A stretch of DNA of 64,000 nucleotides from Deltaproteobacteria bacterium (GCA_023265595.1 JAHFSU010000007.1:1440-65439); one strand, 5' to 3'; counted from the stretch's first letter, positions 721 to 50,814 are shown. The notes: generated by a model not told the origin, from the letters alone. A program made the numbers and translations.

Positions 721-1352
721 CTGGCTAGGGTCAACACATCGACGCGTTTGGCCCCCGCCTTTTTTAAAACCTTGGCACATTCGTTGACCGTGGCGCCGGT
801 GGTCAAGACATCGTCGATCAGCAAAAGTGTTTTTTCTTTTGCAAAAGGGATTCTATTTTTTAAACAGGCAAATGCATTTTTGACATTTTGCAGGCGCGCC
901 GCGGCATCCATTTTCGCCTGCGGTTTTGTCCCTCTGGTTTTTTTCAAAACATGGAGAATCGGAACCCCTCTTTTTTTGGCGAGGGTGTCGGCCAAAAGAT
1001 GGGCCGGATTAAAACCTCGGCGCCAGCGCCGCCGCCAATGCAAAGGGACATAGGTCATCGCCTCATATTTTTGAAAATCGACGGGATTTTGGAGCATCAA
1101 ATCGATCAAAGCGGGGATCAGATGAAACTGACGATGATATTTGAATTGATGGACCCAATCCAAAACAGACCCTTCATAGCCGACGGCCGAATGGGCTTCA
1201 TCAAAATATTGTTTGTCAAGACGGGGTAAGTGAGCCGGCGTTTTCAAAAAGAGGAGCCGCCCAAAACAATCGTCACAAATTTGTCTTCTTGAACCGGCCT
1301 CGATAAATTTTTCACAGCCGATGCAACGATTTGGAAAAACGAGGGATAACAT
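711..1352 (-). CDS. comF: ComF family phosphoribosyltransferase-like protein
   Basis: N-terminal CxxC...CxxC zinc-finger-like motif. C-terminal PRPP-binding loop LLLIDDVLTTGATV. Confidence 0.8.
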   Translation of the reverse strand: MLSLVFPNRCIGCEKFIEAGSRRQICDDCFGRLLFLKTPAHLPRLDKQYFDEAHSAVGYEGSVLDWVHQFKYHRQFHLIPALIDLMLQNPVDFQKYEAMTYVPLHWRRRWRRGFNPAHLLADTLAKKRGVPILHVLKKTRGTKPQAKMDAAARLQNVKNAFACLKNRIPFAKEKTLLLIDDVLTTGATVNECAKVLKKAGAKRVDVLTLARAL

Positions 1353-1354
1353 TG

Positions 1355-2911
1355 CTACTGGATCCCGGTTGGAGCCTGCCCCGTACCGCGATACGGGGCC
1401 AGAATGACTAATGAGGTCCCCGTCATCTCAGCCGGCTTTTGGATATCCAGCAACTCAAGCATTGTCGGGGCGATGTCGCAAAGTTTACCGTCACTTTTCA
1501 GTTTGAATTGCTTTTTTTCCGGCGTCACCAAAACAAGGGGAACCTTATTTAACGTGTGGGCCGTATGAGGCAGACCCTTTTCATCGGCCATACATTCGGC
1601 ATTGCCATGATCGGCCGTCACAAGGGCGCTTCCCCCCGCACCGGCTAGTTTGCACAAAACTTCTCCGAGACATTTATCGACCGTCTCCACCGCCTTAATC
1701 GCCGCATCGAGTCGCCCGCTATGCCCCACCATGTCAGGATTTGCATAATTGATGATCATACAATCAAAATTTTTTGAGTCGAGCCGTTCTAAAATTTCCC
1801 GAGTCACTTCGGCCGCCGACATCTCCGGTTTTAAATCATACGTCGCCACCTCTTTAGGGCTGGGGACGAGACAACGCTCCTCTCCGGCAAATGCAATCTC
1901 CTGCCCGCCGTTGAAAAAATAGGTGACGTGGGCATATTTTTCGGTCTCGGCAATCCGACATTGCTTGAGACCCTTTTTGCTCAACACCTCCCCAAAAACA
2001 TTGTCAAGATTTTGGGGGGCAAACACGACCGGATAGGGATAACTTTTTTCGTATCGGGTCATCGTGACGGTGGCGGCAAGTTTCGGCCCTTTTTGCAACG
2101 CGGTGATCAGTTGCCGCGCCCGATCGGCGCGATAGTTGAAAAACAAAACGGCATCGCCATCTTGAATCAAACCGACCGGTTGGCCATTTTTTTCAAGAAC
2201 CGTCGGCAAAACAAATTCATCGGTTGTTTTATTGGCATACGATTTTCGGATCGCCTCCAGCGCCGATGTCGCTTTTTCCCCTTTCCCTTCAACCAGCGCT
2301 TCGTAGGCGAGGGCCGTTCTCTCCCAACGTTTGTCCCGATCCATTGCATAGTAGCGGCCGATCACCGTTGCCACCGCGGCATTGCCGACCGTCGCGATTT
2401 TCTCCTCCAATTTTTTCAGGTAATTTTCGCCGGCATGCGGCGGGGTATCTCGGCCATCCATAAAACAATGGAGAAAAACTTTTTCGATTTTTTCCGATTT
2501 TGCGAAATCGAGAAGCGCAAAAAGATGCGAAAGATGACTATGTACTCCGCCGTCGGACAAAAGACCCATCAGATGCAACGCCCCGCCCGATTTTTTGACC
2601 GTTGCCGCCAAATTTTTTAAAACGGGGTTTTTAAAAAAACTTTTATCCTGAATGGCTGTATTGATTCGCGTCAAATCCTGATAAACAATCCGCCCCGCAC
2701 CGATATTCATATGCCCCACTTCCGAATTGCCGATTGTTTTTGAGGGGAGCCCCACCGCTTCCGCAGAGGCATCGAGCAACGTCCACGGATAATCTTTGAT
2801 GAGGGCGTCCCATGTCGGTGTATGGGCCAAAGCCACCGCATTATTTTCTTTTTGCGTCGAATAACCCCAGCCATCGAGGACTATGAGCAATAACGGTTTA
2901 TAATGATTCAT
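1355..2911 (-). CDS. gpmI: 2,3-bisphosphoglycerate-independent phosphoglycerate mutase
   Basis: 518 aa. Contains LLIVLDGWG, NSEVGHMNIGAGR and ADHGNAE motifs typical of iPGM. The last 16 codons and the stop lie in a palindromic repeat. Confidence 0.95.
   Translation of the reverse strand: MNHYKPLLLIVLDGWGYSTQKENNAVALAHTPTWDALIKDYPWTLLDASAEAVGLPSKTIGNSEVGHMNIGAGRIVYQDLTRINTAIQDKSFFKNPVLKNLAATVKKSGGALHLMGLLSDGGVHSHLSHLFALLDFAKSEKIEKVFLHCFMDGRDTPPHAGENYLKKLEEKIATVGNAAVATVIGRYYAMDRDKRWERTALAYEALVEGKGEKATSALEAIRKSYANKTTDEFVLPTVLEKNGQPVGLIQDGDAVLFFNYRADRARQLITALQKGPKLAATVTMTRYEKSYPYPVVFAPQNLDNVFGEVLSKKGLKQCRIAETEKYAHVTYFFNGGQEIAFAGEERCLVPSPKEVATYDLKPEMSAAEVTREILERLDSKNFDCMIINYANPDMVGHSGRLDAAIKAVETVDKCLGEVLCKLAGAGGSALVTADHGNAECMADEKGLPHTAHTLNKVPLVLVTPEKKQFKLKSDGKLCDIAPTMLELLDIQKPAEMTGTSLVILAPYRGTGQAPTGIQ
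1360..1408. repeat. palindromic element, family 2 (GGAATCC/GTCATTCC type), half copy
   Basis: ggatcccggttggagcctgccccgtaccgcgatacggggccagaatgac matches the copies at 56872, 59053 and 61893. Confidence 0.8.
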
Positions 2912-2965: not shown

Positions 2966-3316
2966 TCATAAAATAAGTTTTGGAGCGTCGCCCCAAAGTT
3001 TTTCGAGATTATAAAAAGAGCGCACTTCGTTATAAAAAATATGGGCCACCGCATCGCCAAAATCGAGCAAAATCCACTCGGCTTCCGAATAACCTTCCAG
3101 ACCCAGCGGATAGCGCCCCTTTTCTTTCAATTTTTTCATCATCGCATCAGCAATCGCCCGAACTTGCGTGTCGGATTTGCCGGAACAGATGATAAAATAA
3201 TCGGTAAAACTGGTGAGGCCCGTCAAATCCAAAATGACAGGGTCCATCGCCTGCACATCTTCTGCCGCCTTCGCCATCATTACTGCCAATTGTTTCGGTG
3301 TCATCGGTATCGGCAT
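2966..3316 (-). CDS. rsfS: ribosome silencing factor RsfS (iojap family)
   Basis: 116 aa with DYFIICSG..SDTQVRAIAD and WILLDFGDAVAHIF motifs. Sits in the conserved obg-rsfS neighbourhood. Confidence 0.9.
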   Translation of the reverse strand: MPIPMTPKQLAVMMAKAAEDVQAMDPVILDLTGLTSFTDYFIICSGKSDTQVRAIADAMMKKLKEKGRYPLGLEGYSEAEWILLDFGDAVAHIFYNEVRSFYNLEKLWGDAPKLIL

Positions 3317-3325
3317 AGAAACAGA

Positions 3326-4336
<1,011 letters not shown>

Positions 4337-41273: not shown

Positions 41274-41510
41274 TTAACTATTTTTTGCTCCGCGTAGTAT
41301 CTCCACCCGCTTTCTTTTTCCCCGAAGGCTTCCGGTAATTTTCACCGATGATTTGGGCACAGAAAAATAATGGGCGAGCGCCGCAACAACCGCTTCGTTC
41401 GCCTTTCCCTCAACCGGCGGCGCCTTGACCGAAACGCGGTAAGAGCCGTCCGGCATCGGCTCGACTTTTTCCTGCTTCGCATTCGGCTTGACTGTAATCG
41501 AGATCTTCAT
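41274..41510 (-). CDS. DUF167 (YggU-like) protein
   Basis: MKISITVKPNAK...VKAPPVEGKANEA. The ATG overlaps the upstream stop (ATGA). Confidence 0.75.
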   Translation of the reverse strand: MKISITVKPNAKQEKVEPMPDGSYRVSVKAPPVEGKANEAVVAALAHYFSVPKSSVKITGSLRGKRKRVEILRGAKNS

Positions 41511-42259
41511 GAAATCAGCGCTTCCTTTTGGGCCCGGCTCCAACCCTTGATCTCCGCCTCTCGTTTCAGGGCGCTTGATTTAGTTTGATATTTTTCTTGA
41601 TATAAAAGTTTTCCGAACCCGAACCCTCGGATAAATTTGGCTCCCTTACCGGTGCGATGTTGCTTCATTCTCCGATCCAGATCGGTGGTGTAGCCGGTGT
41701 AATATTTTCCGTTTTTGGATTGAAGGATATAGACATGGAATGACCTCTTTAGAGCTGCGTTCAGCTCTTGATGCCATCGGACCATTTTTTGAGCCTTGGT
41801 GAGAGAGGCATGCGCCGGACTTGTGGAAGGAAGCCTGACCAATCGCAATGGTTTTAAAAGATGCTTGAGCACCAACTTTCTGAAAAGTTCTTCGGCCTTG
41901 TGACCGTTAAAAAAGACCGTGTCGATTTGCGGGCATCGGAAAAAAAGCGAAGCAAAATCATTTGGAACAACCGATTGCATGGAGATGTTCGTATCCAGAC
42001 TCCCCCGGCGCCGGCATTGGAAAACAACGTCCCAAAGGGCTATGCGGTTTTGGCTTAAAATCCGGAGCTTTTTTTTGTAATTCATTTCTCGGCCGACGCC
42101 AAAGAGACCCTTCATAATATCCCAAAAAACATTTTGCGGGTGGGCGTAGTATTTTTGTTGCCGTAGCGATCGCTCGCCGGGCATCGAACCCAGAATCAGA
42201 ATCTTCGCAGCTGAAGAAGCCACACAGGGGAAACTCTGCAACAGGGTAGATCGATTCAT
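41507..42259 (-). CDS. fusion protein: DNA-deoxyinosine (hypoxanthine) glycosylase, UDG family 6-like + C-terminal GIY-YIG nuclease domain
   Basis: N-terminus has ILILGSMPGERSLRQQKYYAHPQNVFW and LPSTSPA. C-terminus has HVYILQSKNGKYYTGYTTDL..R..QH... Confidence 0.6.
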   Translation of the reverse strand: MNRSTLLQSFPCVASSAAKILILGSMPGERSLRQQKYYAHPQNVFWDIMKGLFGVGREMNYKKKLRILSQNRIALWDVVFQCRRRGSLDTNISMQSVVPNDFASLFFRCPQIDTVFFNGHKAEELFRKLVLKHLLKPLRLVRLPSTSPAHASLTKAQKMVRWHQELNAALKRSFHVYILQSKNGKYYTGYTTDLDRRMKQHRTGKGAKFIRGFGFGKLLYQEKYQTKSSALKREAEIKGWSRAQKEALIS

Positions 42260-47891: not shown

Positions 47892-48206
47892 TTTTCTAGA
47901 ATTAGGCAACGTTGTTGGAAAGACATCTATTCCGAAGTGATCCAAGTGTGCTAAAATGAAAGATAAAAGGGTCAAGTTGGAGTTCCTCCAATTTAATGGT
48001 AACTTAAATTAACGGAAGTGTGTACTTAACGCACAGCCTGCTTAAACTAGGATTTTAACGAAACAATCCATTTTATTTCGACCTTTTTTTCTTCTTTGGG
48101 CCAACCACCCTTTGGTTGTTTTTTATCAAGGGATTGCTTAACTGCCTTATCCAACTCTAAACCATTGATTTTTATTAGCTTTTAATTTTTACCATAAAAA
48201 TGAGTG

Positions 48207-48249
48207 CCGCTACCTGGTAGGGAAAGACCTTTTTCTACCAGGTAGCGGG
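48207..48249. repeat. hairpin H4
   Basis: ccgctacctggtagggaaagacctttttctaccaggtagcggg. Ends 1 nt from the HNH gene stop. Confidence 0.85.
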
Positions 48250-48250
48250 T

Positions 48251-48943
48251 TTATTCAATCTTATCTGACTTTTGTAGATTGTGCTTCATGCAAAGAAGTC
48301 GGACGTTTTTTGCTGATAGACTAGTCCCGCCTTGAGAAAATGGAAGATCGTGATCAAAGTGTAGGTTCTTTGTGTCTCCACATATCGTGCATCTTCCAGC
48401 ATCACGCTTCCACACCTCTCTTTTTACTTCTGACGGAATTAGTCTGGTATGTTCAAGAATCTTGTTGTCGGCTACGTTTTCATTTCTATCAGACAATCTT
48501 AAAATAAAACGATACACGCTTCGTTTCCCATCATGAATTTGTTTATAATTAATGAGATCGAAAAATCCTTTTAGTGACCAGACACCGGAAAATATTTTTT
48601 CATAAACCTTAATGAGCTCGGGAAGTCTATTGTTTTCCTTACATTCTTTTATCGCGTTGATGAATAGTCCATTCTGGGCAAGTTTTCCTGAGGGCAATGT
48701 TTCAGGCTGATCTTCCATTTTTGGGTGATGATTAAACGCTTTTTTAGAAATGTCATGTCCTTCATATTCAATTGTTATTCCATCATCCCAAACTTTATCT
48801 CTGTAAGGAGCATTTGACCGTTGAGACATCAAGATTACTGAATATCCAGGATTCATTCTGAAATTCATACCTCGCTGAAGCGTTTGGACATTTTCAGCGT
48901 CACACATCTCTCGGTAACTTAAAATGTCGTCAAGAATTTTCAT
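48251..48943 (-). CDS. HNH endonuclease with an N-terminal SRA/PUA-like domain (type IV restriction-like)
   Basis: C-terminus CTICGDTKNLHFDHDLPFSQGG...NVRLLCMKHNLQKSDK. The N-terminal 170 aa resemble modified-base reader domains, but that assignment is weak. Confidence 0.6.
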   Translation of the reverse strand: MKILDDILSYREMCDAENVQTLQRGMNFRMNPGYSVILMSQRSNAPYRDKVWDDGITIEYEGHDISKKAFNHHPKMEDQPETLPSGKLAQNGLFINAIKECKENNRLPELIKVYEKIFSGVWSLKGFFDLINYKQIHDGKRSVYRFILRLSDRNENVADNKILEHTRLIPSEVKREVWKRDAGRCTICGDTKNLHFDHDLPFSQGGTSLSAKNVRLLCMKHNLQKSDKIE

Positions 48944-49000
48944 GATTTTTAAAGGAGCAACATAAAGGAATCAAGTTTTGATCTTTTCATTTTTTTAACC

Positions 49001-49039
49001 AAAAAACCTCGCCAATTTTTTTAAAATCAGCGAGGTTTT
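49001..49039 (-). terminator. intrinsic terminator downstream of tRNA-Asn
   Basis: The minus strand reads aaaaCCTCGC-N17-GCGAGGttttttgg. Confidence 0.6.
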
Positions 49040-49063
49040 GAGTTCGGGTTCACACCCTATTTG

Positions 49064-49137
49064 CTCCGCGGGCAGGATTCGAACCTGCGACGGGGTGATT
49101 AACAGTCACCTGCTCTACCAGGCTGAGCTACCGCGGA
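49064..49137 (-). tRNA. tRNA-Asn (anticodon GTT)
   Basis: Hand-folded cloverleaf: TCCGCGG TA GCTC AGCCTGGTA GAGC A GGTGA CTGTTAA TCACC CCGTC GCAGG TTCGAAT CCTGC CCGCGGA G. CCA is not encoded. Confidence 0.92.
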
Positions 49138-49373
49138 AGAATAAACTTCAAACACTGTCTCCCATTCCCAGATTTAAAAAACTTTTCTCTTCGTATTGCC
49201 AAATCTTTATCGCTAAATTCCTCATAATATACCAACTCAAAAGGCCTATTTATTTTTGTATATTTATTAGCTCCAAAATTATGCTCTTCTAACCGTTCCT
49301 TTGGGGGTTTACTGGTATAGCCAATATATCTCTTCCCATTTCGCAAGCTTTTTAAAACATAAACATAAAACAT
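49128..49373 (-). CDS. stand-alone GIY-YIG nuclease-domain protein (UPF0213-like)
   Basis: MFYVYVLKSLRNGKRYIGYTSKPPKERLEEHN. The stop codon TAG lies inside the first bases of tRNA-Asn. Confidence 0.7.
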   Translation of the reverse strand: MFYVYVLKSLRNGKRYIGYTSKPPKERLEEHNFGANKYTKINRPFELVYYEEFSDKDLAIRREKFFKSGNGRQCLKFILPR

Positions 49374-49389
49374 TTTTATCAACAGTCTG

Positions 49390-49446
49390 CCCGCCACCAC
49401 TGCGTGGCGGGTCCGCCATGCTGTAATGGCGGAAGCTACCGCGGAA
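49390..49446. repeat. twin abutting hairpins plus a duplicated tRNA-Asn 5-prime end
   Basis: cccgccac-cactgc-gtggcggg and tccgccat-gctgta-atggcgga, then agctaccgcggaa (49434-49446), identical to 49126-49138. Confidence 0.85.
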
Positions 49447-49497
49447 TAAAAACAGTACCCCCTAACATTTTCATTTCAGAGTGTAAAGGATTGGAAA

Positions 49498-50814
49498 CTA
49501 ACGCAGATAGCCCCACGTATGCAACTGGTCGCTTTCGGTAGCCCACGAAGAGCCGATGTCGGTCCGGTAAAACATGTTGGGAATTAAAATATTTTTGATG
49601 CGGCCATAGGCCATTTTTCGGGCACTCTCCACTGTGGTACCGTTGCCGGTCACCACCAACACGACGCCGGAAACCCCCGCAATCCGCCACGTACCCTCAT
49701 CATTTTTGACATCTTCAATGTGAATCCCATCCAGACCGTTCGGATTTTTGAAAGCAACCGCCACATCTTTATAGATATTGAGAAGCTCTTCGTCGTTGTC
49801 GCTGGCAAAATAGGTCGGGATTAAAATCCGGACTCCCAGTTGGAAACCCTTTTTCGTTTTAAGTTCAAATGACTCGCCATGGGCCAAACGATAAAGCCAT
49901 TCTCCGGCCGGCGTTGTGATCCCTTCCAGTTGAATCTGGATGGTCGGAAACCCAAACCGCGAGGTGAATTCCAAAGGGTAAATGCCGCGCCCGTTCACAA
50001 TGCAATTGATATCGATGTAGCCGATGTATCCGGATTCTTTCAACGCCGGCAGCATTTTTTTCAACGTCTCATCAAATAAGACATTGGGAGAGCTCCAATA
50101 AACAAGGGTTCCCATCTCTCCGCTAAAGGGCCCGATGTTTCCCGGATAAATCCGTTTGTGTTCGAAATTGACGCAGATGGGATAAATAAAATCGCTGCCG
50201 TTGAAAAAAGCGCCGACGGCAACCTCCACGCCCGAGATATATTTTTGCAATAAAAAGACCGGCGTCTTTTTGCTCCACGATTTTTTGTTTTGTTCCAACA
50301 ATCCCAAAAGGTCGCGCCCGTCCTCCTCCTGACCCAAGAAAAGAAGCCCTTTGCCGCCCGATGGGGTGTTTCCAGACGGCTTGAAAACATAGCGCCCCGG
50401 ATTTTCTTTGATGAAGCGAATCCCTTCCTCATAATTTTCAAATTGCCAGCTGGGAAGAACATTGACATCGTATTTTTTCAGCTCGGCCTGCCCAAACTCC
50501 CGGTCGATTTCAAGCCGGTCGGTATAGACTGTGCCGCCGATCACCTTTTTTCCTTCGCGCCGGAGTTTCTCGGCCGCCTCTCCAAACTCGACATCGTCAA
50601 AAATAACGACATCGGCCCAAGCCGCGTGCGGTTCCCATGCATCGACCCTGTTTAGAAAGCCGTCATAAACATCGTCATCCGATTTGGCCTGAATATAAAC
50701 TTTGACTTCGTGCCCCTCTTTGGTGAGATGCCAAGCCAAATCGCCGCTCAAACTTTCGAGAGAGACAAAAAGAAATTTTTTAGGGGAAAAGTGTGGATCG
50801 TTTTTATCAAACAT
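49498..50814 (-). CDS. PurD-like ATP-grasp enzyme (phosphoribosylamine--glycine ligase family)
   Basis: ATP-grasp core (YVFKPSG....GKG, LLQKYISGVE, PLEFTSRFG). The N-terminal domain is atypical. Confidence 0.55.
   Translation of the reverse strand: MFDKNDPHFSPKKFLFVSLESLSGDLAWHLTKEGHEVKVYIQAKSDDDVYDGFLNRVDAWEPHAAWADVVIFDDVEFGEAAEKLRREGKKVIGGTVYTDRLEIDREFGQAELKKYDVNVLPSWQFENYEEGIRFIKENPGRYVFKPSGNTPSGGKGLLFLGQEEDGRDLLGLLEQNKKSWSKKTPVFLLQKYISGVEVAVGAFFNGSDFIYPICVNFEHKRIYPGNIGPFSGEMGTLVYWSSPNVLFDETLKKMLPALKESGYIGYIDINCIVNGRGIYPLEFTSRFGFPTIQIQLEGITTPAGEWLYRLAHGESFELKTKKGFQLGVRILIPTYFASDNDEELLNIYKDVAVAFKNPNGLDGIHIEDVKNDEGTWRIAGVSGVVLVVTGNGTTVESARKMAYGRIKNILIPNMFYRTDIGSSWATESDQLHTWGYLR

Follow-up and report, generated by a model that had tools for sequence, protein, structure and literature searches.

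A 308-bp insert carrying only an 81-codon GIY-YIG nuclease gene and two small hairpins sits at the front of a tRNA-Asn gene in the window, by which we mean the whole 64,000-nucleotide stretch of DNA analysed here (Deltaproteobacteria bacterium, GCA_023265595.1 JAHFSU010000007.1:1440-65439). We interpret it, with a probability of roughly 0.68, as one copy of a widespread, apparently undescribed family of selfish cassettes of about 300 bp in bacterial tRNA genes, which leave one intact tRNA copy in place. The homing-like mechanism that we propose for these cassettes is inferred and not shown. A preliminary description had proposed a roughly 308-bp mobile GIY-YIG cassette that inserted into the 5' part of the tRNA gene with a duplicated 5' segment, possibly of homing type. 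The features that it described are all present, and its interpretation as a mobile cassette is supported, with the refinement given below as to which tRNA segment travels with the element.

Read on the minus strand, the end of a GARS/ATP-grasp gene (49498-50814) is followed by a 52-nt flank, the first copy of a 13-mer, two abutting hairpins, a 16-nt spacer, the ORF, and the intact tRNA. The features are as follows.

49447-49488, minus strand, ancestral upstream flank of tRNA-Asn, likely the promoter/leader region (CTTTACA...GAAAATGTTAGG...TTTA)
49434-49446, minus strand, upstream (displaced or carried) copy of the tRNA 5' end, base -1 plus tRNA bases 1-12
49412-49433, minus strand, hairpin 1, TCCGCCAT-tacagc-ATGGCGGA
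49390-49411, minus strand, hairpin 2, CCCGCCAC-gcagtg-GTGGCGGG
49374-49389, minus strand, spacer before the ATG, in which 49378-49387 (GACTGTTGAT) resembles tRNA-Asn gene bases 31-40 (GACTGTTAAT, which include the anticodon)
49128-49373, minus strand, 81-codon ORF for a predicted single-domain GIY-YIG (UPF0213/Slx1-like) nuclease, whose last codons (CCG CGG TAG) are tRNA bases 2-10
49126-49138, minus strand, second copy of the 13-mer, part of the intact tRNA
49063-49137, minus strand, intact tRNA-Asn(GTT)
49003-49039, minus strand, terminator-like inverted repeat followed by a T-run, downstream of the tRNA
49126-49433, minus strand, the 308-bp block absent from the uninterrupted allele (equally 49139-49446, because of the 13-bp repeat)

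ARAGORN found one tRNA in the window, tRNA-Asn(GTT), and Rfam scored it at 66.1 bits. The 13-mer AGCTACCGCGGAA occurs at 49126-49138 and 49434-49446 and nowhere else in the 64 kb, even with one mismatch allowed; the expected count is 0.02, and 0 of 100 shuffles gave 2 or more. The repeat extends to 17 of 19 bases. Both hairpins are perfect 8-bp stems with 6-nt loops. The TAG stop of the ORF (49130-49128) is bases 8-10 of the tRNA. In addition to what had been described, the spacer holds a 9/10 match to the anticodon-loop region of the tRNA, which was reached by 13 of 5000 shuffles. The inverted repeat downstream of the tRNA has 17-nt arms that are 88% complementary, but a promoter/terminator consensus scan of 48900-49620 found neither a terminator nor a sigma-70 consensus, and the promoter role of the upstream flank is therefore inferred. 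An independent Logan contig of sequencing run X1 covers 49109-49615 with no difference, so that both repeat copies stand in a second assembly. A chance repeat, a simple local duplication or an assembly artefact, for which nothing speaks beyond the shortness of the repeat, is excluded by this contig and the expected count, together with the empty allele and the recurrence of the design in more than 50 other loci described below.

We next looked for an allele without the insert. An exact search of JGI metagenomes for the predicted empty junction (27-mer) found nothing, whereas a scan with the tRNA itself found a metagenome contig (L086) carrying a tRNA-Asn identical at 75/76 positions. The sequence directly upstream of it (CTTTACA...GAAAATGTTAGG...TTTATTCCGCGG) is homologous to the flank that precedes the upstream 13-mer in the window. 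When 49126-49433 was removed in silico, the window aligned colinearly with L086 from that flank through the whole tRNA. A second contig, L081, comes from a close relative of the window organism, with a GARS protein 95% identical to that of the window; it has an uninterrupted tRNA 5' half after the homologous intergenic region and no GIY-YIG gene. An exact look-up of the window's GARS protein found no record. These results show that the window carries a 308-bp insertion with a 13-bp direct repeat, and that the upstream 13-mer sits where the ancestral tRNA began. No presence/absence polymorphism was seen when contigs of four runs were compared with 48200-50300, as no joint skipped the cassette, although only X1 holds this organism; the RNA run X12 had no coverage of the locus.

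L081 and another close relative, L011, carry a group I intron inside the anticodon of tRNA-Asn (in L081, Rfam RF00028, E=3e-4, cut by the contig end), and that intron contains a TCCGCCA...TGGCGGA hairpin. This raised the possibility that the cassette is a degenerate remnant of a group I intron with its homing endonuclease gene, the hairpins being left-over intron helices, and the resumption of the truncated tRNA copy up to the anticodon just before the ORF, in the window and in loci L012, L015 and L018, would fit such an origin. However, nothing in 48000-50500 except the tRNA reached the gathering score of any Rfam family, only 74 nt lie between the fragment and the ATG, too few for a ribozyme, and the intact tRNA needs no splicing. 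Moreover, most family members sit at D-loop or T-loop positions of other tRNAs, and L011 carries both a cassette and an intron as separate entities. We consider this origin very unlikely.

To examine whether the design is general, we scanned one genome per GTDB species and found at least 530 relatives, of which 80 loci were kept. Homologues of the 81-aa protein reach at most 70% identity and come from Omnitrophota, Patescibacteria and other MAGs. Among the 78 loci with a complete ORF, 35 have a co-oriented tRNA starting -97 to +55 nt from the stop codon (type A, as in the window), and 18 have a co-oriented tRNA ending 0-81 nt before the start codon (type B). Several of the remaining 25 have tRNA fragments, an intron-containing tRNA or a contig end at that place. 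In type A, a copy of the tRNA 5' end of at least 13 nt lies 13-120 nt upstream of the ATG in 25 of 35 loci, and in 19 of these it starts at tRNA position -9 to +1, whereas control regions gave a median longest match of 7 nt. A GC-rich hairpin begins within one base of the end of that copy in 21 of the 35. In type B, a copy of the tRNA 3' part of 17-53 nt follows the ORF in 14 of 18 loci, often preceded by a hairpin that sits in the anticodon loop or T loop of the remnant. In total, 39 of the 53 tRNA-adjacent loci have the ORF flanked by a duplicated end of the host gene.

Perfect GC-rich hairpins are 7-10 times more frequent within 200 nt of these ORFs than in the rest of the loci, and their stems follow NCNGCC/GGCNGN (TCCGCC, CCAGCC, CCCGCC, TCAGCC, GTCGCC and others) with matching changes in the other arm. 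In 14 type-A loci the ORF ends inside the tRNA, repeatedly at the conserved TAG of bases 8-10 (gap -10, as in the window) or at a TAG in the D arm (gap -23). In several loci tRNA sequence resumes for a few bases after the hairpins (GGTTAGAG in L006; G[AG]CTGT in the Asn-type loci L012, L015 and L018; CAATGGTA in L084 and L085), and the truncated copy is thus a longer tRNA piece with the hairpins inserted in it. The common architecture is an ORF between two tRNA copies, one intact and the other truncated and interrupted by hairpins.

Evidence of movement came from L024 and L028, which are syntenic tRNA-Gln loci of two species. The block of tRNA fragment (bases 1-21), hairpins, spacer and ORF is about 98% identical between them (ORF, 4 differences in 225 nt, pS 0.066), whereas the flanking orthologous genes have pS 0.67-0.70 (56-79% amino-acid identity), the upstream intergenic DNA is unalignable, and the two resident tRNA-Gln genes differ. 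The cassette is therefore much younger than the genomes that carry it, which shows recent horizontal movement in the family, although not of the window copy itself, whose closest homologue is only 70% identical. In L028 the truncated fragment is foreign to the resident tRNA. It follows that the repeat is not a target-site duplication and that the fragment can travel with the cassette; in this pair it is the upstream (truncated) fragment that travels with the hairpins and the ORF, and not a replacement segment next to the intact tRNA. In the window the two 13-mers are identical, and which copy was carried cannot be told.

Protein nearest neighbours share the tRNA amino-acid type in 27 of 54 cases (4.1 expected), with switches at 60-72% identity, and eighteen amino-acid types are used. 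This is the pattern expected of a nuclease lineage with a heritable but evolvable target. The closest relatives of the window's protein (L084, L085 and L001) sit at tRNA-Asn in unrelated gene neighbourhoods, with the same hairpin site after base 12. The ORFs are under purifying selection, with pN 0.10-0.14 against pS 0.63-0.86 in five further pairs.

The 81-aa protein matched Pfam PF01541 over residues 1-69 (60.4 bits against a cut-off of 22.6, E=2e-16), and NCBIfam has no model for it. Y5, Y16, R27 and E63 are invariant, and H31 nearly invariant, in 40 homologues. The profile of these homologues matched the solved UPF0213 proteins BH0048 (1zg2, E=2e-14) and EF2693 (1ywl, 4e-14), followed by eukaryotic SLX1 (3e-5) and, far behind, I-TevI (8e-3). 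The AlphaFold model is confident (pLDDT 91.9), and its best Foldseek matches are UPF0213 and the Slx1 nuclease domain (TMq 0.63-0.68), ahead of I-TevI (0.50). There is no further domain, and thus no separate DNA-binding domain as in I-TevI and the Seg proteins. These results show a conserved, probably active nuclease domain, although we found no report of cleavage activity, cut site or target specificity for this protein or for any UPF0213 member.

We infer that the nuclease breaks or nicks an uninterrupted tRNA gene near its 5' part, and that the break is repaired by copying from a cassette-bearing allele. The intact tRNA would serve as the long homology arm, and the short tRNA fragment beside the hairpins would let the other broken end anneal, which would explain why that fragment is kept and why it is copied with the cassette. 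In this way the whole block would be copied in while tRNA function is never lost. Against this model, the intact tRNA next to the cassette keeps the presumed target sequence, so that immunity of the donor allele is unexplained, as is the way in which a protein without a DNA-binding domain would recognise a tRNA gene; in L028 the left boundary of the copied block lacks obvious homology. Because the ancestral tRNA upstream flank now precedes the cassette, the ORF is probably transcribed from the tRNA's own promoter as a leader of the tRNA precursor, from which RNase P would release the tRNA. As the ORF ends with the conserved U8-A9-G10 of the tRNA, RNase P cleavage would remove the stop codon from the mRNA, and translation would have to precede processing.

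The small GIY-YIG protein could instead have a host function tied to tRNA, such as precursor processing or tRNA or DNA repair at highly transcribed tRNA genes, the partial tRNA copies being by-products of recombination among tRNA genes. The purifying selection on the ORF and its strict co-orientation and contact with tRNA genes are consistent with this, the same domain is used in an ordinary repair-type fusion (UDG-GIY-YIG) elsewhere in the window, and Dunin-Horkawicz et al. 2006 (PMC1564403) noted a fusion to a TrmH-like tRNA methyltransferase and suggested a role in RNA metabolism. Such a function cannot be excluded, but it does not explain presence and absence at the same tRNA allele in close relatives, the young age of the L024/L028 cassette, or the tandem and decayed remnants. 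The use of eighteen tRNA types with only one or a few tRNAs per genome affected, and the constant hairpin-plus-fragment signature, also speak against it, and we regard it as doubtful.

The hairpins are a conserved part of the element; candidate roles are a structure recognised by the nuclease, protection of the truncated copy from cleavage or recombination, and stabilisation of the mRNA 5' end. As DNA, the hairpin pair of the window folds as two hairpins (-18.9 kcal/mol, z -3.7), whereas as RNA the similar arms allow an alternative long hairpin (-36.4 kcal/mol, z -4.4). A comparison of G·T with A·C mismatches on the sense strand, made to separate RNA-level from DNA-level selection, gave 26 versus 20 and was not informative. 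Notably, hairpin-only insertions occur in tRNA copies (a third tRNA-Gln copy in L028, and tandem units without an ORF in L012), hairpins of the same sequence type occur in the group I introns of L081 and L011, and the hairpin position within the truncated copy varies (after base 12, 17, 21-24 or 28) even among Asn-type loci. The cassette might therefore be mobile with the twin hairpin, as a MITE-like or REP-like palindromic element, being recognised by some other enzyme or inserting by replication slippage or template switching, and with the ORF as a passenger or addiction-type gene. We think this improbable, because hairpins and ORF are inherited together across phyla, no other candidate enzyme is conserved next to the cassettes, whose neighbours differ in every locus, and the ORF is under purifying selection with its catalytic residues intact.

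If our main interpretation is right, standalone minimal GIY-YIG proteins of the Slx1/UPF0213 clade include a large selfish branch, and bacterial tRNA genes in many phyla (Patescibacteria, Omnitrophota, Bacteroidota, Ignavibacteria, Planctomycetota, Elusimicrobia) would be hosts to an unrecognised parasite that avoids killing its target by duplicating part of it. This would explain many "GIY-YIG family protein" annotations beside tRNAs and many partial tRNA gene fragments in genomes. A more far-reaching possibility, which remains speculative, is that these are a class of minimal autonomous mobile elements that target tRNA genes in general by recognising DNA structure (tRNA-gene cruciforms or loops and the element's own interchangeable twin hairpins) rather than a long sequence, and that spread across phyla while rebuilding the tRNA. 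This would give the first biological role to the UPF0213 family and a natural, very small structure-guided DNA-insertion system.

We compared the cassette with known elements. Integrase-driven genomic islands and prophages also insert in a tRNA gene and restore it through an element-borne copy of the tRNA end, leaving direct repeats, but the 308-bp insert holds only the GIY-YIG ORF and no tyrosine or serine recombinase, and in the window the repeat lies at the tRNA 5' end. Nor does it fit an insertion sequence or DNA transposon, because no inverted repeat joins the two ends of the insert and the repeat is absent in L028. GIY-YIG-encoding insertions in rRNA genes of CPR bacteria (PMC11270868) are likewise non-intron insertions inside structured-RNA genes of the same kind of bacteria, mostly at tips or bases of stem-loops, but were judged there not to spread by homing, and tRNAs were not mentioned. 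This was the nearest report, and we found no description of small GIY-YIG genes embedded in duplicated tRNA genes in the literature searched, which does not cover all journals.

The best sequence and fold matches are the single-domain, minimal UPF0213/bacterial Slx1-like proteins and eukaryotic Slx1, the latter a structure-specific nuclease for branched DNA. Dunin-Horkawicz et al. 2006 (PMC1564403) placed the bacterial minimal proteins in the Slx1 lineage, saw them as vertically inherited, and derived the selfish GIY-YIG enzymes from the other (UvrC-like) lineage, whereas the present subfamily is embedded in tRNA-gene duplications and moves horizontally. SegB of T-even phages is a free-standing GIY-YIG homing endonuclease in the tRNA gene cluster, reported to cut within tRNA-containing sequences and to drive tandem amplification through microhomology between the tRNA 5' region and the 3' end of segB (PMC13096335). 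Tandem units are seen here in L065, L012 and L085, those of L065 and L012 being tandem tRNA-ORF arrays. SegB is, however, a multi-domain phage protein for which no duplicated tRNA fragment or hairpin signature is described, while the present family is chromosomal, with only 1 match in 2.9 million viral contigs, in a scan that depends on one peptide pattern, against at least 530 in genomes.

Together with SegB, the closest analogues are the mobile endonuclease ORFs of fungal mitochondria that carry a replacement gene end (Allomyces macrogynus atp6; Glomus atp6, atp9, cox2, nad3; PMC3630166). There, a free-standing endonuclease ORF (GIY-YIG in Glomus atp9) is inserted at the end of an essential gene together with a duplicate of that gene end, one functional copy is kept and the other displaced, the foreign and native copies can differ, and spread is by endonuclease-induced homing. 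On the mechanism that we infer, the cassette described here would follow the same logic of a free-standing homing-type endonuclease cassette that rebuilds its target gene, but its target is a bacterial chromosomal tRNA gene, often its 5' end, its ORF is only about 80 codons with no DNA-binding domain and belongs to the Slx1/UPF0213 clade rather than the I-TevI/Seg clade, and conserved GC hairpins mark the truncated copy.

Twin hairpins were also found without an ORF. In L028, a tRNA-Gln locus that carries a cassette, twin hairpins at about 3400-3530 sit inside an otherwise complete third tRNA-Gln copy, after base 21. In L012 (3246-3453), a tRNA-Asn-type locus of the family, there are tandem units of tRNA-Asn bases 1-28, twin hairpin, and then GACTGT. 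Tandem arrangements were likewise seen in the Bacteroidota loci L065 (3243-3600) and L041 (2800-3330), where units consisting of the tRNA 3' part, terminator, and GIY-YIG ORF are repeated, and a CCTGCCTGCNGGCAGGCAGG hairpin sits in the anticodon loop of the disrupted tRNA-Arg copy. In L085 (1746-1887), a locus encoding one of the closest relatives of the window's cassette protein, the intact tRNA-Asn next to the cassette is followed immediately by a second copy of tRNA bases 10-76, that is, a head-to-tail partial duplication.

A second UPF0213-type GIY-YIG domain is encoded within the window, at 41507-42259 on the minus strand. This 250-aa protein fuses an N-terminal uracil-DNA glycosylase (UDG) superfamily domain (PF03167, 2.8e-10) to a C-terminal UPF0213-type GIY-YIG domain (PF01541, 3.4e-18); it has about 40% identity to the cassette protein, and no tRNA is nearby. 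In L084, another locus with one of the closest relatives of the cassette protein, a separate UDG gene lies directly upstream of a cassette. The gene just downstream of the tRNA in the window (48251-48943, minus strand) encodes a 230-aa protein with a C-terminal HNH nuclease motif (Pfam HNH, 2.6e-4), which showed a weak match to the HNH part of IscB. The 48-50 kb bin has the lowest GC content of the window (0.41 against about 0.47).

The uninterrupted tRNA-Asn allele of L086, a metagenome contig, lies next to a 414-aa ORF (812-2056, minus strand) with a homeodomain-like HTH (PF13565, below the cut-off). This ORF may be a transposase, so that locus is also near mobile DNA. When the window tRNA-Asn (49060-49138) was compared with runs X2 and X4, contigs from these other groundwater metagenomes were found to carry this tRNA-Asn with 0-1 differences, at much higher depth and with unrelated flanks. 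The tRNA allele is therefore shared by several organisms in such communities.

The tRNA-Asn of a close relative of the window organism (L081, 2175-2356) and that of an Omnitrophota MAG (L011, about 3233-3420) is interrupted inside the anticodon, after G-T of GTT, by a group I intron (Rfam RF00028, E=3e-4 in L081, where it is cut by the contig end). The intron contains a TCCGCCA...TGGCGGA hairpin like those of the cassette. L011 has both the intron and a cassette.
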